A stretch of 64,000 bases of DNA, from NCBI GenBank assembly GCA_016187335.1, contig JACPJW010000001.1:288001-352000 (forward strand), written 5' to 3'. This DNA is from Candidatus Aenigmatarchaeota archaeon. GTDB taxonomy: Archaea; Aenigmatarchaeota; Aenigmatarchaeia; GW2011-AR5. Each line of letters opens with the position of its first letter. Position 1 is the first letter of the stretch. The position numbers and the translations under genes were made by a program. This document shows, one piece after another, positions 2,200 through 48,204 of this stretch. Below the pieces are notes generated by a model. It saw nothing but the letters and a program-made list of their open reading frames with translations, made no database searches and had not been told where the DNA came from.

Positions 2200-4398
2200 T
2201 CACTTTTCCGCTTTTGCTTCGGCCTTGTGGCTTTTCATGTGCAGCGTTAAGGCGCGCTGCGAGCTGTAGCTTTTGCTGCACACCTCGCACTTCAACTGCT
2301 GCGCAAGCTTGGACGCCTTTCTGCTGTCCGCCTGGACCTGCTTTAATTTCTTCTTGTCCAGCCATTCCTTCTTCGTCGGGCAGTTGGGGTCAAGGCACAT
2401 CCTGAAAGGCCGCCTTCCGGGCACGCTGACCTGAATCATCGGCGTCTTGCATTCCTCGCATACCTTGTCCAGAGCCATTATCGTTCCCTCGCGCGGCAGC
2501 GGAAATCCCGTCCTGCACCCTTTCTTGTATCCCGTGCATCCGACGAAGCGCTTCTTTGTTCTCCATGACTTGTGCACCTTCAGCGTGCCTCCGCATTCCC
2601 TGCATGTTCCGAGGATGCTCTGCTTGTCCTGCGTTGCGATGACGGCATTGGTCAGTTCCTCGCCGATTTTCTTTTCCTTTTTTCTGAATTCTTCGGATAT
2701 CTTTATCAGACGCTTCTTCGAGTCTTCAACAACGTCTTCCCTTTTCATCTTCCCTTCCTGCACAGCTTCCGTAGATTCCTCAAAATGCCTGGTAAGCTTT
2801 TCAGAAACTACATCAGGTATGTTCTTCTCCAGGATTTCCGCCAGCTGCATGCCCAGCTCGGTTACTTCAATGCTTTTTCCGATGAGATATCCTCGGTCGT
2901 ATAGTATCTGCAGAATATTCGCACGTGTTGCCTGGGTTCCCAAGCCGGCTTGTTCCATTGCCTTGAGAACTGAGCCTTGCGAGTATCGGGGCGGCGGCTG
3001 CGTTTCCTTTTCCGCCTGCTGGACATCCTTTATGGCAAGCTTGTCGCCAACGTGTATTTCAGGGAGTATTACTTCTTCCCGGCCGGCGTATTTGCCGTAA
3101 AGCGCCGTCCATCCAGGCTCTATTGTCTTCGTCCCGCGCAAAAAGAAATCTTCTCCGTTGGCGTCCAGTTTTACGTTCATGAACTCCCTTTTTGCCGGGT
3201 CGCCGAAAACCGCTAAAAATCTTCTTACAACTAAATCATACACTTTCATCTGCTTGTCCCCCAGTTTTTTGTACAAGCCCGTCGGATAGATAGCCGGGTG
3301 CGCCGCTGAGGTTGCCTTTCCTGACGTCGGCTTCAGCTCCTTTCTGCCCAGAAGGAATCCCGTGTCCTTGCTGTAAGCCGGCTGTTTTGCCAGAGACGAC
3401 AGGATTTTCTTGTAGTTGATGTCCGGCGGCAGCTGCTGGCTTCCTGTTCTGGGATAAGAAATAATCCCTGCCTGATAAAGCGATTCCGCTATGCTCAGGC
3501 CCTGCTGCGGGGAATATCCGAAGTAGCGGTAGATGTCCGCAAGGAACGCCGTGGTATTGTAAGGCACAGGCGGCTTCTGCGTCATTAATTTCTTTTTGAT
3601 GTCCTTTACAGCGGCAGAAGCTGTTTTTGCTTTCTTCAAGATGCTGTCGGCTTCGCCCCTGCTCCATATCTTGTCCTTGGCGTGCATCGCCTTGAGTCCG
3701 CCTTTCAGTTCAAGCGTTATTTCCCAGAAAGGCTTCGGCTTGAAAGCGCGCACCTTCTTTTCGTGTTTCGCGAGCATGTGAAGAACCGGGCCCTGGACGC
3801 GCCCCGTGGAAAGTATCCTGAACCTTTTTGCCGCTGCTTTTATGGAAAGCGTCAGCGCGCGGGTAAGGTTTATGCCCCACATGTTGTCCAGATAATGACG
3901 GGTCAGGCCGGATTCTATCTGGCTGAAGTCCAGGTGCTTTAGCGGCTTTTCATAGCTTTCCAGCAGCTCTTCCTTTGTCATCGTGCTGAATTTCATGCGT
4001 AGCGCGTCGTTCCTGTTGCACAAAAACCGCAAAATATTGTAGCCGATGACGCTGCCCTCGTCGTCATAGTCCGTGCAGACGATGTATTCGTCGCCGTTTC
4101 CTACGACCTTCTGCACGACGTCAAAATATTTCTTGCTGAACATCGCCGTCCTTGTTGCCTGGAAAGAAGGAATCCATTCAACGTCAAAAACAGGATAAGT
4201 CCATCCCCTGCCTTTCTGCTTTAACGTGAACAAATGGCCGACAGCCGCGACTACCACGTGGTTTTTTCCGCCTTTCCTGAACTCGTAATAGCGCACTTTC
4301 TGCTCGTTCTCGTGCGTTTTCATTGAGCCCTTGTCGGCAAGCGCCTCGGCTATCGCTTTCGCGGCGCTGGGCTTCTCCGCTATCATCACTATTGTCAT
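2200..4398 (-). CDS. topA: Type IA DNA topoisomerase with C-terminal Zn ribbons and a terminal C2H2 finger
   Basis: TOPRIM motifs AEKPS and DYDDEG, STGRVQ, catalytic SYPRT, CxxC repeats. Start moved to ATG 4398 (GAGG RBS upstream) from the track's GTG 4497. Confidence 0.95.
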   Translation of the reverse strand: MTIVMIAEKPSAAKAIAEALADKGSMKTHENEQKVRYYEFRKGGKNHVVVAAVGHLFTLKQKGRGWTYPVFDVEWIPSFQATRTAMFSKKYFDVVQKVVGNGDEYIVCTDYDDEGSVIGYNILRFLCNRNDALRMKFSTMTKEELLESYEKPLKHLDFSQIESGLTRHYLDNMWGINLTRALTLSIKAAAKRFRILSTGRVQGPVLHMLAKHEKKVRAFKPKPFWEITLELKGGLKAMHAKDKIWSRGEADSILKKAKTASAAVKDIKKKLMTQKPPVPYNTTAFLADIYRYFGYSPQQGLSIAESLYQAGIISYPRTGSQQLPPDINYKKILSSLAKQPAYSKDTGFLLGRKELKPTSGKATSAAHPAIYPTGLYKKLGDKQMKVYDLVVRRFLAVFGDPAKREFMNVKLDANGEDFFLRGTKTIEPGWTALYGKYAGREEVILPEIHVGDKLAIKDVQQAEKETQPPPRYSQGSVLKAMEQAGLGTQATRANILQILYDRGYLIGKSIEVTELGMQLAEILEKNIPDVVSEKLTRHFEESTEAVQEGKMKREDVVEDSKKRLIKISEEFRKKEKKIGEELTNAVIATQDKQSILGTCRECGGTLKVHKSWRTKKRFVGCTGYKKGCRTGFPLPREGTIMALDKVCEECKTPMIQVSVPGRRPFRMCLDPNCPTKKEWLDKKKLKQVQADSRKASKLAQQLKCEVCSKSYSSQRALTLHMKSHKAEAKAEK

Positions 4399-4774: not shown

Positions 4775-6052
4775 TCATTTCTCCATCTTGTCAAAGCCGG
4801 TGTAAGGCCGCAGCGCTTTCGGGATGAGCACGGAGCCGTCCTTCTGCTGGTGCTGCTCTATGATTGCCATCATGGTCCGGCTTGTAGCAATGGCAGTGTT
4901 GTTCAGCGTGTGGACAAAGCCCTTTGGCGGGGTTCCTTCCTTTTCGCGGAATTTTATGTTCAGCCTGCGCGCCTGGAAATCCGTGCAGTTGGAATTGCTG
5001 CCGGCTTCACGGAAAACGCCGTCGGCCATCCAGACCTCCGTGTCGTATTTCTTCGCCGCTATGATTCCTATATCGCCCGTGCACACGCTGACGACGCGGT
5101 GGTGCAGCTCCAGCTGCTGGTAAAGCTGCTCGCTGTTTTGCTGCAGCTCTTCGTGCAGTGCCCATGACTGCTCCGGCGCTGAAAAAATGAACTGCTCGAC
5201 CTTGTTGAACTGGTGCATCCTGAACAGCCCTTTTGTATACTTTCCGTGAGCGCCGACCTCCTTTCTGAAGCACGGAGAAACGCCCGCGATTTTCAAAGGC
5301 AACTCCTGCTCCAGCAGCGTTTCGTCCATCAGCATCGCCCCTATCGGATGCTCTGATGTCGCTATCAGATGCAAATCCTCGCCTTCTATTTTGTACAATA
5401 CGTCAATGAAATCCGCAAGCGATGTCACCCCTTCGTAAGGCTTCCTGTTGAGCATGTAAGGAGGATTCACTACAACAAAGCCTCTCTTCCTCAGGAAGTC
5501 CAGGGCAAAACGCTGCAGCGCCATGTCAAGAAGCACCAGCTCGTTTTTCATGTAGAAAAAACCGTGCCCCGCGACCTTTGCCGCGCGCCCGCTGTCAATA
5601 AGCCCTAAATTTTCAAGAAGCTCCGCATGCCCTTTCGGCTTAAAGTCAAATTTCGGTGCTTCGCCGTAACGCCTTATTTCCACGTTGTCCTTGTCATCAG
5701 CGCCTATTGGCACTGATTCGTGCAGCACGTTAGGCAGCTGCATCAGAATCAGCCTGCACTGCTCGTTTAGCTGGTTAAGCTTTGTATCGTTTTTCCTTAT
5801 CTTTTCGGGTATTTCCTTTATTTCTTTCATCCTCGCTGCTATCGGCTTCTTTTTTGCCTTCAGCTCCGCGATCTCTTTTGTCACGACATTCCTTTTGTAT
5901 CGCAGTTCTTCCGTTTTTTTCAGCAGCCCTAATCTTTCCGAATCTTTCTTGATAAGCTCGTGCAGCAGCTTTATCTTCGCCTCGTCCCTGCGCTTTTTCA
6001 GGTCATTTTCAACGACAGCCGGGTTTTCCCTGATGAGTTTTATGTCAAGCAT
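4775..6052 (-). CDS. serS: Seryl-tRNA synthetase (bacterial-type class II)
   Basis: MLDIKLIRENP start, coiled-coil arm, LIATSEHP, FRKEVGAHG...GLFRMHQFNKVEQF, SNCTDFQARRL, HTLNNTAIA. Confidence 0.97.
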   Translation of the reverse strand: MLDIKLIRENPAVVENDLKKRRDEAKIKLLHELIKKDSERLGLLKKTEELRYKRNVVTKEIAELKAKKKPIAARMKEIKEIPEKIRKNDTKLNQLNEQCRLILMQLPNVLHESVPIGADDKDNVEIRRYGEAPKFDFKPKGHAELLENLGLIDSGRAAKVAGHGFFYMKNELVLLDMALQRFALDFLRKRGFVVVNPPYMLNRKPYEGVTSLADFIDVLYKIEGEDLHLIATSEHPIGAMLMDETLLEQELPLKIAGVSPCFRKEVGAHGKYTKGLFRMHQFNKVEQFIFSAPEQSWALHEELQQNSEQLYQQLELHHRVVSVCTGDIGIIAAKKYDTEVWMADGVFREAGSNSNCTDFQARRLNIKFREKEGTPPKGFVHTLNNTAIATSRTMMAIIEQHQQKDGSVLIPKALRPYTGFDKMEK

Positions 6053-6693
6053 GTTGTTCCCCAAAAATGCCAATCAATTCCCAAAGGTCCTTTGATTCTA
6101 TAAGGTAATCAGTGTATTTTCTTACAATGTCCTTGGGGGCAATCCCTACAGCGATATCCGCTTCCTCAAACATTGCAATATCGTTTGCGCCGTCTCCGAC
6201 GGCTATCACTTTTCCAAAATTGTATTCTTTTCTAAGGGCTTTAATAGGCTCTGATTTGTCAATTAGAGGGATAAACCGTTTCAATGTGCTGCCCGCCAAA
6301 AACTGTTCCTGTTGCGAACACAACATCTGCGTATAAGCCGTTTTTTCTTACCAGGTGTTCAACTATGAAATCAAGCCCTCCGGTAACAACAGCTATTGCA
6401 TAGTCTTCTTTTACACGCTCCAGTGTTTTCTTTGCGTTTGGCATAAGCGATATGTCATCAACAGCGCGCAATATTTGATCCCTTGTCAAGTGTTTTATTT
6501 TTTCAACCCTGGCTCTTAGTGACTCTTCAAAACAGATCTTTCCTTCCATGCCTGCTCTGGTCACTTCCTTCATGTAAGCCTCCTGGCCGGCGTATCGGCC
6601 TATATGTTCCATCGTCTCGCCGTCAAGGAGCGTTCCCTCAAAATCAAACACGACAAGCCTAGGTTTACCTAAAGAAAAAGCATTGCTCAGCAA
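6045..6693 (-). pseudogene. serB: Phosphoserine phosphatase SerB-like HAD hydrolase, frameshifted
   Basis: The N-part (6259-6693: FDFEGTL, FEESLRARV, VVTGG) and C-part (6045-6326 frame: AVGDGANDIAM) are in different frames. Removing one C from CCC at 6268-6270 gives a 215-aa protein. There is no in-frame ATG. Confidence 0.75.
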
Positions 6694-6729
6694 ACGGATT
6701 GGTACGGCATCGCCATCACTTTATTTTGA

Positions 6730-7194
6730 TTATTTTGATCGCAACATTTTTAAAGCTTCTGTGGCATAGAAGCGCAGCGCCGGGCTCATGAGCGTTTTTT
6801 TCAGTTCTGTTTTATCAAACCATCTTATCTCGTTGTGCTCGTGTTCTTTCAGTTTTATTTTGTCTTTTTTTGAACTCATAAAATAAATCAGGACGATATG
6901 CCTGTGGCTGCCTCTGATTTCGTGTATGTCAACATACTGCGGAGTGAGCAGGAATTTTGTGCCCTTGCTCCTGATCCTGGGCCTGTTGTCGCTGATTGTC
7001 AGATCCTTTTCCGATAAGCCGCACTCCTCTTTTATTTTCCTGAACAATGCTTCGTCTGCGTCCTCGTTCAGCTCTATGTGGCCGCCTATGGGAAGCCATT
7101 TGCTTAGCTCTTTGTGGTGTATCAGCAGCACTTTGTCTTTATGGACAATATAAGCGGCTATGGTGAAGTCTATCTTTTCATGAATATGGGGCAT
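6730..7194 (-). CDS. NUDIX hydrolase
   Basis: Nudix box GGHIELNEDADEALFRKIKEECGL; start at ATG 7194 (MPHIHEKIDF). Confidence 0.88.
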   Translation of the reverse strand: MPHIHEKIDFTIAAYIVHKDKVLLIHHKELSKWLPIGGHIELNEDADEALFRKIKEECGLSEKDLTISDNRPRIRSKGTKFLLTPQYVDIHEIRGSHRHIVLIYFMSSKKDKIKLKEHEHNEIRWFDKTELKKTLMSPALRFYATEALKMLRSK

Positions 7195-7243
7195 GCTTAA
7201 CCTTACCAAAAAACTTTTATAAATTCGCTGCCAAAATGCTGAA

Positions 7244-7537
7244 ATGCACAAGGCTTTGCTTCTGCTCAGGAAAATACCAAAGGGAAAGGTCACCACTTAT
7301 GGCGCTCTGGCAAAAGCCTGTAATTCTTCACCAAGGGCAATAGGCTCTGTCATGCGAAGCAATCCAAGGCCCGACCTCTATCCGTGCTACAAAGTAGTGG
7401 CAAGCGACGGCGGGATAGGCGGCTACGCCGGATGCGTGAAGGGAAAGAAAATTGCTGAGAAGATTTCACTGCTGAAGAAAGACGGGATAAGAATCAGGAA
7501 CAGAAAAATTGAGGATAAGTATATTTATAGGTTTTAA
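7244..7537 (+). CDS. ogt: O6-alkylguanine DNA alkyltransferase family (MGMT DNA-binding domain only)
   Basis: IPKGKVTTYGALA, PRAIG, active-site variant PCYKVV, GGYAG, KISLLKKDG. Confidence 0.85.
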   Translation: MHKALLLLRKIPKGKVTTYGALAKACNSSPRAIGSVMRSNPRPDLYPCYKVVASDGGIGGYAGCVKGKKIAEKISLLKKDGIRIRNRKIEDKYIYRF

Positions 7538-7538
7538 A

Positions 7539-7889
7539 ATGACGCGTGTTCTCACAGGCGGCACTTTTAATAAAATTCACAAAGGTCATGTAGAACTTTT
7601 GAAACGTGCCAAAAAACTCGGGCATCTGATAGTTGTGATTGCGCATAATAATCATAACAAAAAACCTTATACCATTCCTGCTGAGAAAAGAAAGAAAATA
7701 GTAGAGAAACTAAAAATTGCTGAGAAAGTGATAATAGGCGATCATGATAGATTTGCAGGGGTAATAGAAAGAGAAAAGCCTGATGTAATCGTTCTGGGCT
7801 ACGACCAAAATCTTCCTGACAAAGAAACCAAAGAATTGGTAGCGAAAATGGGCATAAAAGTTATAAGATTGAAAAAATTTAGCGTGTAA
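7539..7889 (+). CDS. Cytidylyltransferase-family protein, FAD synthase RibL-like
   Basis: VLTGGTFNKIHKGH (HxGH motif), KPDVIVLGYDQ. Confidence 0.8.
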   Translation: MTRVLTGGTFNKIHKGHVELLKRAKKLGHLIVVIAHNNHNKKPYTIPAEKRKKIVEKLKIAEKVIIGDHDRFAGVIEREKPDVIVLGYDQNLPDKETKELVAKMGIKVIRLKKFSV

Positions 7890-8958
7890 CTTCCTGCTTC
7901 CTCACAAAATCATAAAGCTCCTTCGCCTTGCCCTTTTCGAAATGGATCCTTATCGGCTTTATCATTTTGTCGATGTAAACGGCAGCGGCATTTTTAAGGT
8001 CAGCAGGATGCAAATCTCCTTTTGCAAACGCCTGCTCTAATTCGTTGTAAGAGGAAAAAACAGCATCGCCGCCGAACTTTGCAGGGCGCTCTATCTTCAT
8101 TTTGTCAAATTTCCTGAAAACAAGATATTTGCAGTATTCCAGGACCGGATTATTGTGTATTTCTTTCGCCGGGCAAAAAGCATTGTTTAATTTCTTTTTG
8201 ATTTCATCGGCGCTGTCGTGGACAAAAACAGCTGTGGACGGCTTGCTCTTGCTCATTTTTGAGCTTATCTCAGCGTCCTTCTTTTTGTCATCCTCAAAGC
8301 CTTCGGGCTGCTTTATTCCTTCCAGACCCATCAGCATGTGGTGGGAAACAATCACAGGCGACCACCAGCCAAGCTTAGGTCCTACTTCGCGCGCAAGCAT
8401 GTTCGCCCTGCGCTGGTCAAGCCCAAGCTGGCATATATCTGCCTCTAGTTCAAATATGTCCGCGGTCTGCATCATCGGGTAGAAGTATTGCGCTACTTCT
8501 TTCATTTCCCCTTCCTTCCTGCCCATTATTGTCAGCGCACGCGTGGCCCTCTGCACTGTCGTGTGCTTCGCAATCAGTATTACTTTTTTCCAGTATTCCG
8601 TCCTGCTCGCTATGTCCGAAGCCCAGACATATTCAGCGTTTTTCACGCCCGCGGCTTTCCACACTTCTATGAAATACTTGCCGACGGTTTGTATTTTTTC
8701 CAGGTCGCCGCCCATCTTGTTGTTGACCCATGCGTGCCAGTCGGCAATGAATAGTTTGAATCTAACGCCTGCCTTGTGCATGTCCTCAAGAAGCAGCGGC
8801 CTGAATACTCCGAACGCTATATGGGCCTCGCCTGAAGGTTCGAATCCGTCATAAGCTATTGGATGCTTTTTTTGTTCAAGAAGCGATTTTAGCTCCTCCT
8901 TGGTTACTATTTCCTCGCCGACGCTTTCGATGTATCTAAGCCTTTGTTCGGTAGTCAT
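7879..8958 (-). CDS. tyrS: Tyrosyl-tRNA synthetase (archaeal type)
   Basis: AYDGFEPSG, YPMMQTADIF, GLDQRRA, KMSKS, LHPADLK. Confidence 0.96.
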   Translation of the reverse strand: MTTEQRLRYIESVGEEIVTKEELKSLLEQKKHPIAYDGFEPSGEAHIAFGVFRPLLLEDMHKAGVRFKLFIADWHAWVNNKMGGDLEKIQTVGKYFIEVWKAAGVKNAEYVWASDIASRTEYWKKVILIAKHTTVQRATRALTIMGRKEGEMKEVAQYFYPMMQTADIFELEADICQLGLDQRRANMLAREVGPKLGWWSPVIVSHHMLMGLEGIKQPEGFEDDKKKDAEISSKMSKSKPSTAVFVHDSADEIKKKLNNAFCPAKEIHNNPVLEYCKYLVFRKFDKMKIERPAKFGGDAVFSSYNELEQAFAKGDLHPADLKNAAAVYIDKMIKPIRIHFEKGKAKELYDFVRKQEVTR

Positions 8959-9011
8959 TATAGCACCTTTTTAAATTATGATTTAAGTGTATAAATAAAA
9001 CTGTGATACAC

Positions 9012-11766: not shown

Positions 11767-12579
11767 CTATACGGCTGCGGTGGAATATAATTCCATTTCC
11801 CTTCCTATTAAGTCATGGGCATTTATCGCGTGATAATGTCCGTTCTCCACGATAATAAGGTTGCCCTTTGCCGCTACGACCGTGCCGGATATTTCTTTTC
11901 CGCTGCCGACTGCGAATTTCTTCGGGTGGCTGGGAACCCTGTCAAGGCGGTAATGTTTCCTGAAGTCGTGTATTTCGGGGTATATCATGTGCTGCGCAAA
12001 ATCAGTTTTTTTAAGCCTGCTTATGGCGTTGAACAAGGCAACAGCCGCGTTGTTGGGGTTGCCGAAAATCAGTTCGTGCTTTTTGTCGCCCCATACCCTG
12101 TCGACGACGCCGATGGATTTCATTATTTCGTGTTCCAGTTTTCTTGCAATGAAACCGTCCTTGACAACGCCCACCTTGGCGGCCATGTCCGCTCCCTGCT
12201 CCACCAGCCTTTCAAGAACGCGGAACTCCATGCTTATGCCTACCTTGACCAGGGAATCAAAAGCGGCAAGGTACACAAAATACCTCTCTTCCTTGCAGTC
12301 CTCCCTTCTTTTCAGGTTGATGCACTGCGACCCGTCGCACTGGACGCAGAGAAAGAAGTCGTCGCGCAGCCTGCATTCGTTGCAGTAATATCCCTTTTCG
12401 ATTACGGCGCTGTTGGGGCACTTCACGTGCTTTCCCTTGGCAAAATGGCCTATGCATTTCTTCTCGCCTATCTTCAAAGAAATTCTAGAATCAAATAACC
12501 GCAGCCTTTCAAACCCGTTGCCGTTGTTGAATACCAGGAACGGCTCCCAGTTCTCCCATTTGTATTTTACTGCCTGCAT
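11767..12579 (-). CDS. DUF2797-like Cys-rich protein
   Basis: CIG...CP...YCNEC...CVQC...C pattern and FVYLA...VKVGIS...RLVEQGA. Confidence 0.8.
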   Translation of the reverse strand: MQAVKYKWENWEPFLVFNNGNGFERLRLFDSRISLKIGEKKCIGHFAKGKHVKCPNSAVIEKGYYCNECRLRDDFFLCVQCDGSQCINLKRREDCKEERYFVYLAAFDSLVKVGISMEFRVLERLVEQGADMAAKVGVVKDGFIARKLEHEIMKSIGVVDRVWGDKKHELIFGNPNNAAVALFNAISRLKKTDFAQHMIYPEIHDFRKHYRLDRVPSHPKKFAVGSGKEISGTVVAAKGNLIIVENGHYHAINAHDLIGREMELYSTAAV

Positions 12580-13153
12580 CCAATCGCCTGTACTTCTTCA
12601 GCGCCTTTTCGAGGTTGCTGTCAATCCATAAGTTTCTCTTTAGCGCTTCAAATAAGCTTTTCGCTTTTGCTTCGTATGCTTTATTCCTTGTCAGCTGGTG
12701 CAGCATCTCGGCTGCCGTGCTGTCCACGGCGTAAAAGGCAACCCACGGCGCGCTCAGGCTTAGGTAATCAGCGAAGCTTTCAGGCTTCCTGCCGGCTGTT
12801 TTTGCGTACATGTAGTACAGGTAATCGTCCTTCAGCAGCTTTGCCGTTTCCCTGAATGCCATGACATCCTCGATGAGCTGCGGCAGCCCCATCGGCCTTA
12901 TGAATATCCTGTTCAGGCTTTCGGTGAACATGGAGCGCAGCGCCTTCCTGTCATGCTCCGCGAGGAATGCGTTCATCCTGCTTACTGATAATGTCGCCCT
13001 GCTTTCCTCAATTATCAGCGCGTCTATTTCTGCTATCCTGAATTCTATTGTGTCAAGAGGGATCTTGTTCGGGAATTTCTTTATGCTTTCATCAAATAAA
13101 GAAGAAGCGAATGCCTCGTTTTTATTCCGCCTGACTTTTTTCACGATTCGCAT
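12509..13153 (-). CDS. Hypothetical protein (214 aa)
   Basis: Long open frame in operon orientation; its 3' end overlaps the DUF2797 gene by 71 nt. Confidence 0.65.
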   Translation of the reverse strand: MRIVKKVRRNKNEAFASSLFDESIKKFPNKIPLDTIEFRIAEIDALIIEESRATLSVSRMNAFLAEHDRKALRSMFTESLNRIFIRPMGLPQLIEDVMAFRETAKLLKDDYLYYMYAKTAGRKPESFADYLSLSAPWVAFYAVDSTAAEMLHQLTRNKAYEAKAKSLFEALKRNLWIDSNLEKALKKYRRLDAGSKIQMGELGAVPGIQQRQRV

Positions 13154-13169
13154 AATTTATTATTGCCGG

Positions 13170-14015
13170 TTACTTAATATCTTTCCACTGCTTGATTGCC
13201 CGCTCGTAGCCGTCCGTCGTGCTCACGTCTATGCTGGTCCCGTCGTGGACAAAGCCGCACAGGTGGCCTTCTTTTGCCAGCCTGTCGAAAAGGTCTTCTA
13301 TCATGAATTTTCCTTTCTGGACGTATTTGATTATGTCCGGCTCGAAAATATGGAATCCCGTGCTTATCAGGTTCGAAGGCGCCTCGCTTTTTCTCGGCTT
13401 CTCGACGAATTCAAGTATCTGGTTGCCCCTCATTTTCACGACGCCGAAGGAGCTTATGTCGTCGCTCGTTCTGAGGAGCAGCGTTGCGGCGCTTCCCTGC
13501 TTTTTGTGAAAATCAAGCACTGACTGTATGTCCGGGTCCATAAGCGTGTCCACGTTAAGCATGCCGAACGTGTCGGTTATGTGCTCCTCTGCGAGCTTCA
13601 GGGCGCCTGCCGTCCCCAGGGGCTTCTGCTCCACTATGTAATTTATGTTCACGCCGAATTTTGACCCGTCGCCGAAATAGTCCACGATTTTTTCGTACAT
13701 GTAGCCTACGGCAATTATGAGGTTCCTCACTCCGTTTTTCTTCAGCATGCTTATCTGGTGCTCTAGAATGGGTTTTCCATGTATCGGTATGAGCGGCTTC
13801 GGAATTTCATAGGTGATCGGCCTCAGCTTTACACCTTCGCCGCCTGCCATTATAAGCACGGTATCCAGCTGCGGTATGTCCATGGATTTCAGGACCAGCT
13901 GCTCGATTGCGTGCGACCTGTTTCTTACGTCCTTGCCGTTGACGAGCCTGTCGACTTTCCTCAGAACAGAAGAATCAAGGGTTATCGTTATTCTTTCCTT
14001 TTTATCCCTTTTCAT
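13170..14015 (-). CDS. Ribbon-helix-helix (CopG/NikR-like) domain fused to a sugar-phosphate nucleotidyltransferase domain
   Basis: N-terminal RITITLD...VDRLV...NRSHAIEQLV, then IMAGGEGVKLRPITYEIPKPL, PLGTAGAL, FVEKP. Confidence 0.88.
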   Translation of the reverse strand: MKRDKKERITITLDSSVLRKVDRLVNGKDVRNRSHAIEQLVLKSMDIPQLDTVLIMAGGEGVKLRPITYEIPKPLIPIHGKPILEHQISMLKKNGVRNLIIAVGYMYEKIVDYFGDGSKFGVNINYIVEQKPLGTAGALKLAEEHITDTFGMLNVDTLMDPDIQSVLDFHKKQGSAATLLLRTSDDISSFGVVKMRGNQILEFVEKPRKSEAPSNLISTGFHIFEPDIIKYVQKGKFMIEDLFDRLAKEGHLCGFVHDGTSIDVSTTDGYERAIKQWKDIK

Positions 14016-14072
14016 AGTATGAAAAAGTATGAAAAGTATTTAAGGATAGGTAAATTATGTGAAAAAGTATGA
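14016..14072. repeat. Direct-repeat array (GAAAAAGTAT-like) around the shared promoter of the RHH gene and heptose operon
   Basis: AGTAT at 14016, 14026, 14035 and 14066; GAAAAAGTAT at 14021 and 14061; GAAAAGTAT at 14031; TATA-like TATTTAAG at 14037-14044. Confidence 0.6.
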
Positions 14073-14102: not shown

Positions 14103-15677
14103 ATGATTTCAAAAGCCAAGGCGCCTGTGCGCATATCCTTCGGTACCTGCGGCGATACCGATTACTATATAGACCTCATAAAATGGGGCAATGGCATCAA
14201 CGCAACCGTAGACCTGTATTCTTACTGCGAGGTTCATAAAAGGGACGACAAAAAAATTGTCTTGCGGTCGCTGGAAACAGGGCAGGTCATTGCCTTTGAT
14301 TCCGTGGAAGATATAGAGCCGGGCGGCAGGGAACTGAACCTGATGAAGGCTGTTGTGAAGCATTACAAAAACGGCGGGGTTGAAGTGATAACCCACACCG
14401 ATGCCCCTCTGGAAAGCGGGCTTGGAGGGAGTGCTGCGCACGCCGTTGCGATGATAAGGGCATTTGACCAGCTCAACGGCATAAAAAGAACCCCCGAAGA
14501 AGTTGCAAAGCTTGCGTACGATATTGAAAGGAATGTCGTCGGGATTGAAGGCGGGTACCAGGACCAGTGGTCATCCTCTTACGGCGGCATGAATTACATG
14601 GAATTCACTGCAGAAGGGGTAAAGATAACCCCGCTGAAGCTCAACGGATCTGAGCTGAATTTTCTTGAGAAAAATACTATCCTTGTTTTCGTTCCCAGGG
14701 AAGGCGAGGGAAAAGCGGTGCATTTTGAGCAGAGAAAGAAGGGACAGGAAAGCGTTCCTCTCCTGATGATGAAAAGAGAAAACGTGCTGAGGCTGAAAGA
14801 TGCGCTGGAAAGGAGGAAATTCGGCGAGATCGGAAGCATTCTGCATTTTGACTGGAAAATAAAAAAACAGCTTGCGCCGGGCATATCAAACAAGCGCATA
14901 GACGAGATTTATGATGCCGCTATAGGTGCCGGCGCGCTGGGCGGCAGGTTCATAGGAGCGGGTGCCGGAGGCTCTGCTATTTTCTTTTGCCCGGATAAAA
15001 GGGAGGAAGTCTTAAGGGCTCTGGAGAAGGCCGGCACGAAAGAAATCAGGTACGGCTTCGAGAGGCATCACGCCCAGAAGGATTATAAAGAGCCGATAAA
15101 TGAAAGGATTGCGGAACATGCCTCGCTGATGGAAAAGATCCTGCAGGACGGGGAAATAACGGAAAAGGCGCACCAGATAACAAACAAGATAGTAGAATGC
15201 TACAAGAACGACGGCAAGGTCGTCGTCTTCGGGAACGGCGGCTCCGCGGCCGACGCGCAGCATATTGTTGCGGAGCTCGTGAACAAGTTCAAGATTGACA
15301 GGCCGATGCTGAATGCGATCGCGCTTACTGTGAACACGTCAATACTCACGTCAATAGCCAACGATTCCACGTACGACGAGGTGTTTTCCCGCCAGATAGA
15401 GTTCCTCGTTGATTCCCGGGATGTTGTCATAGGGATAAGCACAAGCGGAAAGGCGGTAAACGTCATGAAAGCGCTGAAAAAAGCGAAGGAAAGGGGAGCT
15501 GTGGTTGTTTATTTCACCGGCAAGGACGGCGGCATGATAAGCAATATGTGCGAAAAAGACGGCACCATAGACATTTCGCTGAAAGTTCCCCACACAAAAA
15601 CGGAAAGGATACAGGAAGGCCACATGATTTTCGGTCATATAATATGCGAGCTCGTTGAAAGCGAGCTTTACGGCTGA
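14103..15677 (+). CDS. hddA-gmhA: Fusion of heptose-7-phosphate kinase (HddA, GHMP) and sedoheptulose-7-phosphate isomerase (GmhA, SIS)
   Basis: PVRISFG, PLESGLGGSA, GYQDQW and GAGAGG in the N-part; GNGGSAADAQHIVAEL, GISTSG and RIQEGH in the C-part. Confidence 0.9.
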   Translation: MISKAKAPVRISFGTCGDTDYYIDLIKWGNGINATVDLYSYCEVHKRDDKKIVLRSLETGQVIAFDSVEDIEPGGRELNLMKAVVKHYKNGGVEVITHTDAPLESGLGGSAAHAVAMIRAFDQLNGIKRTPEEVAKLAYDIERNVVGIEGGYQDQWSSSYGGMNYMEFTAEGVKITPLKLNGSELNFLEKNTILVFVPREGEGKAVHFEQRKKGQESVPLLMMKRENVLRLKDALERRKFGEIGSILHFDWKIKKQLAPGISNKRIDEIYDAAIGAGALGGRFIGAGAGGSAIFFCPDKREEVLRALEKAGTKEIRYGFERHHAQKDYKEPINERIAEHASLMEKILQDGEITEKAHQITNKIVECYKNDGKVVVFGNGGSAADAQHIVAELVNKFKIDRPMLNAIALTVNTSILTSIANDSTYDEVFSRQIEFLVDSRDVVIGISTSGKAVNVMKALKKAKERGAVVVYFTGKDGGMISNMCEKDGTIDISLKVPHTKTERIQEGHMIFGHIICELVESELYG

Positions 15678-15688
15678 AGGGTGATTTC

Positions 15689-16267
15689 ATGATTGCGACT
15701 TTTCTTGACAGGGATGGCGTTATAAACAAGGAAACAACTCTGGGGCCCGATAAAAAAATAACTGTTTTCAGTAACGCCGCCGAAGCTGTAAAGATGCTCA
15801 ACAAAATAGGCAAGGTCATTGTCGTCACCAACCAGCCCTGGATAGCCAGGGGGATGCTGACCGAGGAAGAGCTTGAAGGCGTCCACAGAGAAATGGTGGA
15901 AAAATTGGCTGCCAGCGGCGCGAAAATTGACAGCGTTTATTACTGCCCGCATCACCCGGAAATCCATCATAAGGATGTTCCTGACTGGGCAAGGAAATAC
16001 CGTGTTGACTGCAGTTGCAGGAAGCCGAAAACAGGCATGCTGGAACAGGCTGCACTGGACTTCAAACTGGACCTCAAAAAATGCTTTCTTGTCGGCGACA
16101 GAACCGTTGACATACTGGCTGGAAGAAACGCCGGGTGCACGACAATTCTTGTCAGGACGGGAGAAGCCGGCATGGATGGGAAATATGAAGCCAGTCCTGA
16201 CTATGTATGCGAAGACATCTACGATGCCGCGCTGATTATATCAGGAATAATGAAGGGTGAAAAATAA
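15689..16267 (+). CDS. gmhB: D,D-heptose 1,7-bisphosphate phosphatase
   Basis: FLDRDGVIN, VVTNQ, YCPHHP, CSCRKPKTGM, VGDRTVD. Confidence 0.92.
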   Translation: MIATFLDRDGVINKETTLGPDKKITVFSNAAEAVKMLNKIGKVIVVTNQPWIARGMLTEEELEGVHREMVEKLAASGAKIDSVYYCPHHPEIHHKDVPDWARKYRVDCSCRKPKTGMLEQAALDFKLDLKKCFLVGDRTVDILAGRNAGCTTILVRTGEAGMDGKYEASPDYVCEDIYDAALIISGIMKGEK

Positions 16268-16977
16268 TGCAATGCGTTATTCTGGCAGGAGGCCGCGGCG
16301 AGCGCTTGAGGCCCTTGACGGATTCACTGCCGAAGCCGATGCTGCCTTTTGGCGGCAAGCCCCTGCTGGAATATCATTTGTCTTTGCTGAAAAGGCACGG
16401 GATAACTGACGTTGTCATATGCGGCCATTATCTTTTTGACTCGATAAAAAACCATTTCGGCAACGGCGGCGCTTTCGGCGTGAAGATAAGCTATGTTCAT
16501 GAAGAAAAGCCTCTGGGAACCGGCGGCGCGGTGAAAAATGCCGCCGGCGAAATAAAGGAAGATTTCATCCTTCTCAGCGGCGATGTTGCCACAAACCTTG
16601 ACATAACCGCCTTGGCAGGATTTCATAAGGAGAAAAACGCTCTGGCTACGCTTGTCTTGAGGAAAACCGACCATCCGGAAGACAGTGACACAGTGCAGAT
16701 TGACGGGCAGAGCAGAGTCACCAATTTCTTTTTCAAGGATGAAAAAATCAAGAAGGGAAATTTAGGCAACACGGGGCTTTTTGCTTTCAAAAAAAGCATT
16801 CTGGACCGCATACCCGAAACCCCTTGCAACATGGAGAAAGATGTGGTAGCCGGCCTTATTCATGATTTTCCTGTTTACGGCTATGTGAGCGGCGATTACA
16901 TAAAGGATATGGGAACTTTTGAAAGATATGAAAAAGTAAGGAAAGATATTGAAAGCGGTGCTTTAACATGGGAATAA
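16267..16977 (+). CDS. hddC: Heptose-1-phosphate guanylyltransferase HddC-like nucleotidyltransferase
   Basis: LAGGRGERLRPLTDSLPKPM, PLGTGGA, DMGT; lies within the hddA/gmhA/gmhB operon. Confidence 0.8.
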   Translation: MQCVILAGGRGERLRPLTDSLPKPMLPFGGKPLLEYHLSLLKRHGITDVVICGHYLFDSIKNHFGNGGAFGVKISYVHEEKPLGTGGAVKNAAGEIKEDFILLSGDVATNLDITALAGFHKEKNALATLVLRKTDHPEDSDTVQIDGQSRVTNFFFKDEKIKKGNLGNTGLFAFKKSILDRIPETPCNMEKDVVAGLIHDFPVYGYVSGDYIKDMGTFERYEKVRKDIESGALTWE

Positions 16978-17618
16978 TTGTGGTTAATTTTAAGGCTTAC
17001 AGGGAGTCCGTGGGCAGGAATGCAGTGGAACTGGCGAAGAAGATTTGTTCCAGAAGATTTGACGGCGTTCATATCTCAGCTGCCGTCCAGCCCTCGGACA
17101 TAAGCGGCGTGAGCATGATAATGCCAGTGCTTGCGCAGCATGTCGATGCCGCGGATTTCGGCGCGTTCACAGGTCATTTCATCCCGGAAGCGGCGAAAGA
17201 AAGCGGCGCCGAAGGTGTCGTGATAAACCATTCTGAAATGCCGCTGGACTTGAAGACTATAGAAAAAACCATTGCACGGTCAAAATCCTGCGGCCTGAAA
17301 ACGCTCGTGTGCGCCGCCACGCCTGAGATGGTCAGTGCTGTTTCGTTTTTTAATCCGGATATAATTTCCATAGAGCCGCCCGCGCTTATCGGGACGGGGA
17401 AGGCCTCGTCGCAGTTCATGCCCGGGATAATTTCCGGTGCCGTGAAGGGAAGCAGGGGCATACCGCTCATTTGCGGCGCGGGAATAGCAGCAGCCGATGA
17501 CGTCAGAAAAGCCGTGGAGCTTGGATGCGCAGGCATCATGCTTTCAAGCGCTGTTGTCAAGTCGGAGAAGCCTGAAGAAAAAATAAAAGAGCTGGCGGAG
17601 GGCTTGTCTGGAAAGTGA
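16968..17618 (+). CDS. tpiA: Triosephosphate isomerase (archaeal type)
   Basis: VNFKAY, QHVD, INHSE, EPPALIG, GAGI. Confidence 0.9.
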   Translation: MGIIVVNFKAYRESVGRNAVELAKKICSRRFDGVHISAAVQPSDISGVSMIMPVLAQHVDAADFGAFTGHFIPEAAKESGAEGVVINHSEMPLDLKTIEKTIARSKSCGLKTLVCAATPEMVSAVSFFNPDIISIEPPALIGTGKASSQFMPGIISGAVKGSRGIPLICGAGIAAADDVRKAVELGCAGIMLSSAVVKSEKPEEKIKELAEGLSGK

Positions 17619-17622
17619 TTTT

Positions 17623-18066
17623 ATGAAAATCGCAATAGGCTCCGACCACGCCGGCTTCGCCCTGAAAGAAGCCTTGAAAAAGCATCTTGTCAAAGAAGGG
17701 CATTCCGTTGAGGATTTCGGCTGCGGCAGCGAAGAGCCTGTTGATTACCCTGATGTATCAAAAAAAGTTTCTCAAGCAGTTGCCGAAGGGAAATATGATT
17801 TCGGCATACTTCTGTGCGGTACAGGGATCGGCACGTCCATAACAGCGAATAAGGTCGTGGGGATACGGGCCGCTTTGTGCTATGACAAATACACCGCCGA
17901 GATGAGCAGGGCTCATAACGATGCAAACATCCTGACAGTTGGAGGCAGGACGACTTCTTTCAGCAGAGCAGCGGAAATAGTTGACACGTTCCTGAAGACG
18001 AAATTTGAAGGCGGCAGGCACGAAAGGCGCGTAAAAAAGATAAGAGAGATTGAAAAAAATGGTTAA
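17623..18066 (+). CDS. rpiB: Ribose-5-phosphate isomerase B
   Basis: GSDHAG, VDYPD, CGTGIG, HNDANIL, FEGGRHERR. Confidence 0.94.
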   Translation: MKIAIGSDHAGFALKEALKKHLVKEGHSVEDFGCGSEEPVDYPDVSKKVSQAVAEGKYDFGILLCGTGIGTSITANKVVGIRAALCYDKYTAEMSRAHNDANILTVGGRTTSFSRAAEIVDTFLKTKFEGGRHERRVKKIREIEKNG

Positions 18067-18694
18067 GGTCGGCGCATCAATACTTGACGCGGATTTCTCC
18101 ATCCTCGGGGAGGAAATAAGGAGATTGGAGAAAGCCGGGATTGATTTCATATCGTTTGACATAATGGACGGCCGTTTCGTCCCGAATCTGACTTTCGGTC
18201 CTGACCTGATTAAATCCCTCAGGGATAAAACGGGCCTGCCTTTTGAGGCGCATCTTATGGTGGAGAGCCCGGAAAAGTATATCGGCAGGCTTGTTGATGC
18301 AGGCGTTGACATCATAAATATTCACGCGGAAAGCCGCGGAAAAATAGAAGACGTGATAAAATCTATAAAGGCTGGAGACAAAAAAGCCGGCATTGCCATT
18401 AATCCGGGAACTCCTCCGGAATCAATAGGAAAATTTGTTGACGCAATAGACATGGTTCTCGTGATGGCAGTAGAGCCCGGGTTTTCCGGCCAGAAATTCA
18501 TCGACATGTCCGGTAAAATAAAATACCTGAGGGGTCTGGAAAAGGGATTTGACATATGCGTTGACGGGGGAATAAATGAAACGACAGCAAAGCAGGCTGC
18601 AGGCGCCGGGGCGACCATGGTCGTTTCGTCTTCGTACATTTTCAGCCATAAGGACTATTCAGAAGCCGTGAGAAAGCTGAAGACAGCCAGATGA
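18059..18694 (+). CDS. rpe: Ribulose-phosphate 3-epimerase
   Basis: DIMDGRFVPNLTFG, EAHLMV, MAVEPGFSGQKF, VDGGI. Confidence 0.92.
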   Translation: MVKVGASILDADFSILGEEIRRLEKAGIDFISFDIMDGRFVPNLTFGPDLIKSLRDKTGLPFEAHLMVESPEKYIGRLVDAGVDIINIHAESRGKIEDVIKSIKAGDKKAGIAINPGTPPESIGKFVDAIDMVLVMAVEPGFSGQKFIDMSGKIKYLRGLEKGFDICVDGGINETTAKQAAGAGATMVVSSSYIFSHKDYSEAVRKLKTAR

Positions 18695-18742
18695 TGCCCT
18701 GATGATATGCTCTAATAAAGACTATGATTGCAGATGATAGGT

Positions 18743-19669
18743 ATGCGTGTGTTGGTGACAGGCGGAACTGGCTTCATTGGCAGCAACATAGCGGAAGCCT
18801 TGGCCGGGAAAGGTCATGAAGTGGTTGTTCTTGATAATTTCTCCCTTGGAAGGAACGAGAATGTAAGGGAAATAACCGGCAATGTAGAGGTTGTAAACGG
18901 CGATATAAGGGACTTTGAACTGCTGAAAAAAATAACAGCGGGATGTGATGCCATACTTAACCAGGCGGCGGCTTCCTCTTCGCCGATGTTCCGCTCTGAC
19001 CTCCGCAGCGCCGTCGCCGTGAACGTTGACGGATTCGTGAATATACTTAATGCAGCCAGGATGAATGACGTAAAAAGATTGGTTTATGCTTCCAGCTCTT
19101 CCATATACGGCAACAGCGCCCCGCCGCTCCGCGAGGACATGCCTGTTGTCCCTGTTAATTTTTACGCCTCCACAAAGCTTCTCAACGAGCATCTTGCTGT
19201 CCTGTTCGGCGCAGAGTACGGAATAGAAACCGTGGGCTTCCGTTACATGTCCGTGTATGGAAAAAACGAGAAATCAAAAGGTATGTTTGCAAACCTCGTG
19301 ACGCAGTTCCTGTGGGCGATGATGGAAGGAAAGCAGCCGGAAATCTACGGCGACGGCGAGCAGACCAGGGATTTCACCTATGTCAGGGACGTTGTCCGCG
19401 CTAACGTTTTAGCATTGGAGTCAAGAAAGCGCCTTCTCGGCGAAGTCTTTAATGTAGGCACGGGAAAAGCGCACTCCCTGAACGAGCTCGTCGCAATCAT
19501 AAACAAAATCCTTGGCAAAAACATAAAGCCGAAATACGTTCCTGTGCCGGTGAAAAACTACATTGCAGTGCAGCAGGCTGACATAACGAAGATTTCAGCA
19601 GCCTTGGGCTACAGGCCTGAATACCCACTGGAATCAGGCATCAGGGACATGCTTCCGCATTATTCGTGA
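18743..19669 (+). CDS. NAD-dependent nucleotide-sugar epimerase/dehydratase (HldD/GalE-like SDR)
   Basis: GGTGFIG, YASSSSIYG, YASTK, FRYMSVYG, GDGEQTRDF. Confidence 0.88.
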   Translation: MRVLVTGGTGFIGSNIAEALAGKGHEVVVLDNFSLGRNENVREITGNVEVVNGDIRDFELLKKITAGCDAILNQAAASSSPMFRSDLRSAVAVNVDGFVNILNAARMNDVKRLVYASSSSIYGNSAPPLREDMPVVPVNFYASTKLLNEHLAVLFGAEYGIETVGFRYMSVYGKNEKSKGMFANLVTQFLWAMMEGKQPEIYGDGEQTRDFTYVRDVVRANVLALESRKRLLGEVFNVGTGKAHSLNELVAIINKILGKNIKPKYVPVPVKNYIAVQQADITKISAALGYRPEYPLESGIRDMLPHYS

Positions 19670-47511: not shown

Positions 47512-48204
47512 ATGATTTCGCTGATAGTTCCTTCTTTCAACGAGCAGGATTATATCGAAACCGCCATAAGGAAAATAACCGGATTTATGAAAGGATATGA
47601 CTACGAGCTCATCGTCGTTGAGGAGAGCACCGACAGGACGCCGGAAATCGTTGAAAGGCTGTCAGCGAGAAACAAAAGGATAAAACACATGCATTTTGAC
47701 GTTCGCCTTGGGAAGGGCGGGGCCATAGAAAAGGGCGTTGAAGCAGCCAGAGGCGAATATGTGGTTTTCATGGATGCTGACTTGTCCACGGACCTTTCTT
47801 CAATAAAGCTTATTGTTGAAAACCTGCCAAAATATGACGTTGTCGTCGGGTCCAGGTATCACCCGCTCTCCAGGTCCGACAGGACGGTTTTGCGGCTGCT
47901 GCTGAGCAAGGCGTATTCTGTATGCGTGCGTGCGCTTCTGGGGCTGTTCAGGCCGAACGACCTGCAGTGCGGCATGAAAGGCTTCAAGCGAAGCAAAGCC
48001 ATGAAAATTATTCCATTAAGAAACAGGGGGTTTTTCTGGGACACCGAATTCATCTTTTATGCAAAAAGGCTTGGCTTCAGCATAGGCGAAGTGCCTGTGG
48101 TATGGGTCGAGAAGAAGGTCAGGGGCAGCGGCTCGGGAAAATTAAAGAACATTATATATATGGGAAAGTCCCTGGTAAAGCTGTTTATCAGGAATTTATG
48201 GTAA
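47512..48204 (+). CDS. GT2 dolichol-phosphate glycosyltransferase-like
   Basis: VPSFNE, GKGGA, FMDADLST, GSRY, DLQCGMK, FWDTE. Confidence 0.87.
   Translation: MISLIVPSFNEQDYIETAIRKITGFMKGYDYELIVVEESTDRTPEIVERLSARNKRIKHMHFDVRLGKGGAIEKGVEAARGEYVVFMDADLSTDLSSIKLIVENLPKYDVVVGSRYHPLSRSDRTVLRLLLSKAYSVCVRALLGLFRPNDLQCGMKGFKRSKAMKIIPLRNRGFFWDTEFIFYAKRLGFSIGEVPVVWVEKKVRGSGSGKLKNIIYMGKSLVKLFIRNLW

Follow-up and report, generated by a model that had tools for sequence, protein, structure and literature searches.

A ribbon-helix-helix protein fused to a nucleotidyltransferase fold as a candidate regulator of heptose and sugar-phosphate genes in Aenigmatarchaeota

The stretch of Candidatus Aenigmatarchaeota archaeon DNA analyzed here (64,000 nucleotides, hereafter the window; assembly GCA_016187335.1, contig JACPJW010000001.1, positions 288,001 to 352,000), which lies on contig C2 of a genome of 1.01 Mb (G000), contains on its minus strand an open reading frame (ORF) of 281 aa with an ATG start (13170-14015), whose product joins a ribbon-helix-helix (RHH) domain to a sugar-1-phosphate nucleotidyltransferase (NT) fold and is called RHH-NT in the following. 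The NikR-like RHH domain (residues ~6-47; 13875-14000, minus strand) has a beta-strand R8-x-T10-x-T12, and the NT fold (residues 52-279; 13179-13862, minus strand), which is proposed to be the ligand-sensing domain, has a signature loop GGEGVKLRP (residues 58-66; 13818-13844, minus strand) with Lys63 (13827-13829) at the position of the catalytic Arg. On the plus strand, an operon annotated with Pfam and NCBIfam models (14103-19669) encodes an hddA-gmhA fusion, gmhB, an hddC-like NT, tpiA, rpiB, rpe and a short-chain dehydrogenase/reductase (SDR) epimerase. Its first gene, for a 524-aa HddA-GmhA fusion, starts at 14103, which bears out the divergence from a heptose operon put forward in the original prediction, and its hddC-like NT paralog (16267-16977) has the signature GGRGERLRP. 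From a comparison of these genes and their promoter across the phylum, we consider it reasonably probable that RHH-NT is an autoregulated one-component transcription factor acting on TCATAC operators, with an NT domain that senses a nucleotide-sugar.

The architecture first read from the window, an RHH domain of ~45 aa fused to a full NT domain, was recovered with Pfam, AlphaFold2 and Foldseek. RHH_1 (PF01402) matches residues 8-41 with 21.7 bits (cut-off 20.5), or with 26.9 bits in a scan of the isolated domain, and is also matched by 22 of 25 RHH-NT family members, and NTP_transferase (PF00483) spans residues 54-279 (E 6.4e-44). The AlphaFold2 model, obtained with 69 homologs (mean pLDDT 94.4), shows an extended segment (8-13) and two helices (15-24 and 33-45), followed by a Rossmann-like NT domain. 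Its best Foldseek matches are sugar-1-phosphate nucleotidyltransferases, including human GMPPB and plant VTC1, with TM-scores of 0.72-0.78 against 8x7s, 7d74 and 7x8j. A sequence search of the PDB gave the UDP-glucose pyrophosphorylase 8x7s and GMPPB (7d72) as nearest to the NT domain, with GMPPA (7d72_A) also matching RHH-NT (E 1.8e-19). Against the HddC model NF049965 the protein scores 114.7 bits, below the equivalog cut-off of 300, and the NT paralog of the operon scores 114.9. RHH domains are obligate dimers whose two-stranded sheet enters the major groove of DNA; a two-copy homodimer prediction for RHH-NT scored 0.05, a value that weighs neither for nor against dimerisation.

The RHH-NT fusion is a large conserved family across the Aenigmatarchaeota (DPANN), with hundreds of full-length homologs, as the architecture survey made plain. 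A word-indexed protein search with RHH-NT gave 3044 matches, the best 120 of which are 49-100% identical to RHH-NT over 90-100% of its length, with the RHH covered, and come from sources named Aenigmarchaeota/Aenigmatarchaeota or 'archaeon'. In a HMMER search of 50%-identity representatives, dozens of separate clusters align from query residue 5-8 on, and a six-frame search of 371 genomes of the phylum found full-length matches in many families. With a family hidden Markov model (HMM), the RHH domain was detected in 171 of 269 fetched proteins, 166 of them full length. Clusters of similar length, partly with RHH_1, were also seen in the ESM Atlas for Woesearchaeota, Altarchaeota, bacteria of the candidate phyla radiation (CPR) and Methanobacteriota, which are leads only and the sole source for a range of the family beyond Aenigmatarchaeota.

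The original suggestion that RHH-NT controls glycan-precursor synthesis is favoured by a conserved candidate operator in the promoter common to its gene and the heptose operon. Upstream of RHH-NT, the sequences of the 23 closest loci have little in common besides a TATA-like element and a tandem TCATAC-N4-TCATAC, usually in the form TTCATACTT(C/T)TTCATAC. TCATAC occurs 49 times in these regions, against 1.3 expected from shuffles (shuffle maximum, 7), and the exact repeat is found ≤160 nt before the RHH-NT start codon in 21 of the 23 loci, in most related loci 12-18 nt after the start of the TATA-like element. The exceptions are G208, where the site precedes the first of two tandem copies of the gene, and G168, where it lies 875 bp upstream. 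In the window, operator O1 (TCATACTTTTTCATAC; 14017-14032, minus strand) lies in the RHH-NT promoter after the TATA box and before the ATG, the TATA-like element (14036-14044; CTTAAATAC on the minus strand, GTATTTAAG on the plus strand) lies between the two operators, and O2 (TCATACTTTTTCACAT; 14057-14072, minus strand), with two mismatches and at 40 bp from O1, covers the expected start site of the heptose operon, where a transcript from the common TATA element would begin. Since O1 fills the gap from the TATA-like CTTAAATAC to the ATG, the RHH-NT mRNA is probably leaderless.

Across the 371 genomes, 98 exact operator sites were counted, 37 of which (in 34 genomes) fall within 150 bp upstream of an RHH-NT gene, including those of families f20, f38 and f5, whose proteins show only 35-43% identity. 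A motif control with the pattern reversed is not independent here, as CATACT-N4-CATACT coincides with these sites at an offset of one base. Family f39, which is more distant, has a direct repeat of related sequence, RTRTGA-N4-RTAWTA, in five of seven loci, four times at -22 and once at -45. A general promoter element as the meaning of the 16-mer was ruled out, as it occurs only four times in G000, and two weaker matches in the window, at 3236-3251 (topoisomerase) and 47585-47600 (GT2 glycosyltransferase), lie within coding regions and were rejected as chance.

Some further features were observed around these sites. A 19-nt imperfect inverted repeat (84% complementary) extends across the start codon and O1 (14010-14036), and the first RHH-NT codons contain a third repeat unit of weaker match (14010-14025). 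In the tandem duplication of G208 (L099, G208:C25:115481-117149), the upstream copy, with a degenerate loop, bears the operator, and the downstream copy has a canonical GGKGTRLRP and a strand R-I-S-V-T-V.

The sequence of the RHH domain offers a hint about how such sites might be read. A profile of 25 RHH domains of the family matches E. coli NikR (1q5v) with an E value of 1.6e-8, followed by P. horikoshii NikR (0.003) and CopG (0.01), and the aligned DNA-reading strands, R-V-T-I-T-L in NikR and R-I-T-I-T-L in RHH-NT, are both of the form R-x-T-x-T. In the NikR-DNA structure of Schreiter and colleagues (2006), the strand residues Arg3 and Thr5 reportedly read bases. The operator of E. coli NikR is GTATGA-N16-TCATAC (PMC7055735), and a consensus is available for enterobacterial NikR operators (PMC545781); the TCATAC half-site of the RHH-NT operator, which had been derived by comparative genomics before the relationship with NikR emerged, is identical to the E. 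coli one. The same comparison bears on the idea of an antitoxin-like RHH, or a CopG module of plasmid type, with no metabolic role. A weak Pfam match to HicB_lk_antitox, below the cut-off, would speak for such a module, which is nonetheless extremely unlikely, given that the best structural-sequence relative is NikR and not an antitoxin, that there is no toxin partner, and that the gene keeps its chromosomal place beside heptose genes from genus to genus.

A different possibility is that RHH-NT is an ordinary enzyme, whose RHH serves for oligomerisation only, and that another factor binds TCATAC. Two candidates for this factor deserve mention, a separate 128-aa NikR-like protein of G000 (G000:C2:53668-54063) with RHH and NikR_C domains (E 6.1e-14), and the 214-aa protein encoded next to RHH-NT, whose gene stands beside the operator in many genomes of family f1, including those without the RHH-NT gene of the window type (type A). 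The family RHH profile finds one gene only in G000, RHH-NT itself, and the strand of the 128-aa protein is K-I-I-S-V-S-L, not R-x-T-x-T; no TCATAC repeat was found upstream of its gene. NikR_C occurs in 20 of 44 family genomes only, and is absent from the motif-bearing G195 (97% complete), G208 and G184 but present in G175 and G188; these two and G172 yielded neither the RHH-NT RHH family nor the operator motif. As for the 214-aa protein, it was rejected as the operator binder, since its gene lies 32 kb away from the operator in G195 and gave no match to the query used in G313, G060 and G284, where the operator does precede RHH-NT. Because of this co-occurrence in motif-bearing and motif-less genomes, including carriers of the type-B relatives described below, the operator motif appears to track the RHH family of RHH-NT, rather than NikR_C or the 214-aa gene. 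Moreover, conservation along the fused protein peaks in the RHH, with R33, S34, H35, A36 and E38 at 95-100% in the 166 fused proteins. An ordinary enzyme with another operator binder is thus very improbable, and RHH-NT itself is the preferred candidate to bind the operator.

Genomes of family f1 (genera g11, g13, g15 and g16) with the motif but without a type-A gene carry a sister (type-B) RHH-NT, as in L083:1501-2268 (G197), L081:1501-2238 (G206), L082 and L091. Its gene lies between two genes for GT9 heptosyltransferases, and its NT domain matches Pfam only from profile position 16-30 on, the glycine-rich GxGxR loop being absent. The promoter of these genes shows an inverted repeat, GTATGA-N4-TCATAC, right after a TATA-like AATTTAA. 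A third type of RHH-NT was also observed (L086:1501-2310 in G198, and L087 in G197), with a strand R-I-S-L-S-L, a loop AGGGDY... and phased ATTAC repeats upstream in place of TCATAC, which suggest a different operator specificity.

The operator also occurs at promoters other than that of RHH-NT. The exact 16-mer TCATACTTTTTCATAC occurs four times in G000, when ~5e-4 occurrences would be expected for a given 16-mer in 1 Mb, and three of these sites are paired with a second one 39-40 bp away. Besides the site at C2 302017 (window 14017), next to the RHH-NT gene and the heptose operon, a pair at C2 195868 / 195907 lies 43 nt before the gene of a fructose-1,6-bisphosphate (FBP) aldolase/phosphatase (FBPase_3, E 2.7e-140), followed by those for phosphoglycerate kinase (PGK) and glyceraldehyde-3-phosphate dehydrogenase (GAPDH), and divergent from a small membrane ORF. 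The site at C2 503453 falls between a subtilase gene and that of a 72-aa winged helix-turn-helix (wHTH) protein, followed by a gene for a 1385-aa protein, and the pair at C2 697215 / 697255 lies upstream of a phosphoribosyltransferase (PRTase) gene, with a nucleoside diphosphate kinase (NDK) gene nearby. The sister genome G191 keeps the site at all four loci.

In other genera, the operator precedes heptose operons of the HldE or HddA type, clusters for aldolase-GlpX-PGK-GAPDH, FBPase_3-PGK-GAPDH or PGK-GAPDH-triosephosphate isomerase (TIM), an SDR epimerase, a phosphoenolpyruvate (PEP) synthase divergent from a GHMP kinase, and rpiB-rpe followed by heptose genes. The genes behind these promoters seem to share the tasks of supplying sugar phosphates and of turning them into nucleotide-heptose, and the regulon is predicted to extend beyond the heptose genes to gluconeogenesis and the pentose-phosphate branch. 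The association with sugar-nucleotide genes is likewise kept at the RHH-NT gene itself: in 22 of the 23 closest loci, hddA and/or gmhA, for the heptose kinase and isomerase, lies upstream on the opposite strand, and the remaining locus is at a contig end. The larger stretches available for G195 and G208 show the full hddA-gmhA, gmhB, hddC and SDR operon adjoining RHH-NT, so that a canonical catalytic NT exists within the regulated operon, and RHH-NT genes of the distant family f39 lie next to rpiB/rpe or another NT.

A central question is whether the NT domain works as an enzyme or as a sensor. The protein lacks the canonical Arg of the G-x-G-x-R-L signature, with Lys63 instead, and keeps the Lys of the P-K motif (K73), the metal-binding D156 and D263, and the Lys of the E-K-P motif (K206), all of them 87-99% conserved in the family. 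In the original prediction the catalytic loop was thought to have lost its Arg and the neighbouring paralog to have retained it, and so it proved, except that the phosphate-contacting Arg is the sixth position of the signature (Lys63 here) and not the third; a Glu at the third position is no defect, since 36 of 78 unfused homologs carry it. Across the 166 fused proteins the catalytic-Arg column holds Arg in 56 (34%), Lys in 33, Asn in 19, His in 11, Ser in 11, a gap in 9, Asp in 5 and others in the rest, with 77 being neither Arg nor Lys, whereas 76 (97%) of the 78 unfused homologs obtained in the same searches have Arg. A tree of the family, calculated with the loop columns removed, requires at least 25 gains or losses of the Arg, and part of the signature loop is deleted in some fused members. 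Conservation is 87-100% at the pocket residues K73, G134, D156, G191, K206 and D263. Such a pattern would be expected of a domain that binds a ligand without catalysis, and it resembles that of GMPPA.

The same residues can also be taken to indicate a bifunctional enzyme-repressor, or trigger enzyme, with a still active NT domain, a repressing RHH and possibly a substrate or product as effector. The retention of K73, D156, K206 and D263, the conservative nature of the Lys63 replacement, the canonical GxGTR of family f39 and the precedent of the archaeal enzyme-regulator fusion RbkR (PMC5397151) are all in keeping with such a protein. However, the Arg column varies freely (N, H, S, D, G and gaps) in fused but not in unfused homologs, a canonical NT paralog is encoded within the regulated operon, and the type-B relatives have no signature loop, which make a trigger enzyme a rather unlikely, albeit the strongest, alternative to a dedicated sensor. 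The ancestor of RHH-NT, for its part, probably combined catalysis with repression, as BirA, PutA or RbkR do.

In the mechanism that we propose for RHH-NT as a regulator, each RHH dimer would read one TCATAC half-site, and two dimers, held together by the NT domains, would occupy the tandem repeat with its 10-bp phasing, the candidate operator stretch for the resulting tetramer being TTCATACTTTTTCATAC. O1 and O2, 40 bp apart, would bracket the TATA box common to the RHH-NT gene and the divergent GDP-heptose operon. As the operators flank the TATA box, or sit between it and the start site, the bound protein is predicted to block the TATA-binding protein (TBP) and transcription factor B (TFB) or the RNA polymerase, resulting in repression and autorepression. 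A nucleotide-sugar in the NT pocket would then modulate the affinity for DNA. The likeliest effector would be the product of the pathway, GDP-heptose in this case and ADP-heptose where the operon is of the HldE type, and it would likely act as co-repressor; a related nucleoside diphosphate (NDP)-sugar or nucleotide-sugar precursors are alternative candidates. Finally, the presence of the same operator at FBPase_3-PGK-GAPDH and at two further promoters would couple the supply of sugar phosphates to the synthesis of heptose glycans.

Several points weigh against this mechanism. The type-B proteins have a strand K-x-A-x-S and yet apparently the same half-site, so the residue-to-base code borrowed from NikR is not strict, and the 128-aa NikR_C protein could in principle bind TCATAC sites. 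The only change in the catalytic site of RHH-NT is that of Arg to Lys, the other catalytic and pocket residues being intact, so that the protein may have kept some enzyme activity; members of family f39 even retain a canonical GGKGTRLRP. The binding of RHH-NT to DNA and to a ligand is what we infer from comparative data, as with its oligomeric state and the identity of the ligand, and repression as the sign of the regulation is a guess from the position of the sites. Going further, one could see in RHH-NT a family present throughout the phylum, and possibly across DPANN and CPR, of NikR-derived regulators, in which a recruited sugar-1-phosphate NT progressively became a pseudoenzyme sensor of NDP-heptose or some other NDP-sugar, and which would act as a master switch coupling gluconeogenesis and the pentose-phosphate branch to the synthesis of surface heptose glycans, a broader picture on which we are evenly divided.

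The proposed regulator can be compared with several known systems. Like RHH-NT, NikR has a one-component design, with an N-terminal RHH that carries the R-x-T-x-T strand, a GTATGA/TCATAC half-site, and a C-terminal ligand-binding domain, which in RHH-NT would likewise hold the RHH dimers together. However, the C-terminus of RHH-NT is an NTP_transferase fold, not the ACT-like nickel domain NikR_C, and NikR half-sites are inverted with 16 bp between them, whereas RHH-NT has them in tandem and in direct orientation, at a distance of 10 bp, along with a second operator 40 bp off; also, NikR targets nickel uptake, and the predicted targets of RHH-NT are genes of sugar metabolism. PutA is a fusion of RHH and proline dehydrogenase, and NadR of a helix-turn-helix (HTH) and nicotinamide mononucleotide (NMN) adenylyltransferase. 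These two, together with BirA and RbkR (PMC5397151), share with RHH-NT the fusion of a DNA-binding domain with an enzyme fold from the controlled pathway, but their enzymes are active, whereas in the RHH-NT family the catalytic Arg is unconstrained and there are sisters without the loop. The PF00483 fold is also that of GMPPA, which differs from RHH-NT in acting allosterically on GMPPB within a complex and in having a C-terminal left-handed beta-helix; RHH-NT has no such helix and would act on DNA. Despite its impaired catalysis, GMPPA can bind the NDP-sugar product and provides feedback control. Archaeal glycolysis and gluconeogenesis are regulated by TrmB and TrmBL1 (Tgr), in which a ligand derived from sugar governs promoters of FBPase, PGK and GAPDH through sites in or beside the TATA box; the role predicted for RHH-NT is similar, although the TrmB fold, a wHTH with a sugar-binding domain, is unrelated and the motif and ligands differ.

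Full-text literature searches yielded no paper on an RHH-nucleotidyltransferase regulator or on heptose regulation in Aenigmatarchaeota, so the original statement that no regulator with this architecture had been characterised holds for the literature searched. RHH-NT would thus add a new sensor domain to the one-component regulators of the RHH type, as PF00483 is unreported in such a role in those texts. Regulation in DPANN archaea is almost unknown, and a concrete hypothesis that links a transcription factor, an operator with a precise predicted site (TTCATACTTYTTCATAC) and a regulon would, if true, be the first such reconstruction for these organisms. It would also imply that hundreds to thousands of proteins annotated as 'sugar phosphate nucleotidyltransferase' are transcription factors, and that the NikR half-site has been reused outside metal regulation. 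The canonical GxGTR, the variable Arg and the loss of the loop may reflect steps in the conversion of an enzyme into a sensor, and in these reduced genomes the supply of sugar phosphates (FBPase, PGK, GAPDH, PEP synthase, rpiB/rpe) appears to be co-regulated with the synthesis of heptose glycans.

Some other observations concern the remaining operator loci and the genes next to RHH-NT. At the subtilase locus, the operator lies ~80 nt before the 72-aa wHTH gene (L093:4549-4767), followed by the 1385-aa gene (4804-8961), in which no Pfam domain was found; this pair (G000:C2:503549-507961) is divergent from the 1351-aa subtilase and conserved in G191, and the locus may be a surface-protein branch of the regulon. 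The paired operators at 697215-697270, with a TATA box between them, are 40-95 nt upstream of the PRTase gene (L094:3660-4175; G000:C2:696660-697175), with only a 40-aa ORF and no obvious gene on the opposite strand and the NDK gene convergent nearby. In genus g13 (L062, L066 and L069), the operator lies between PEP synthase and a pair of mevalonate-pathway genes for GHMP kinase and isopentenyl diphosphate (IPP) isomerase, so the regulon may also touch the supply of isoprenoid carriers. Downstream of RHH-NT, on the same minus strand (11767-13153) and in conserved synteny, the genes for the 214-aa protein (12509-13153) and a DUF2797 protein (11767-12579) probably share its transcript, given the 16-nt gap and the overlap between genes. 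In genera g13, g15 and g16, the homologs of these two genes come first after the operator, followed in conserved order by a gene for a metallo-beta-lactamase (MBL)-fold protein, a small Hsp20-like gene and RtcA.

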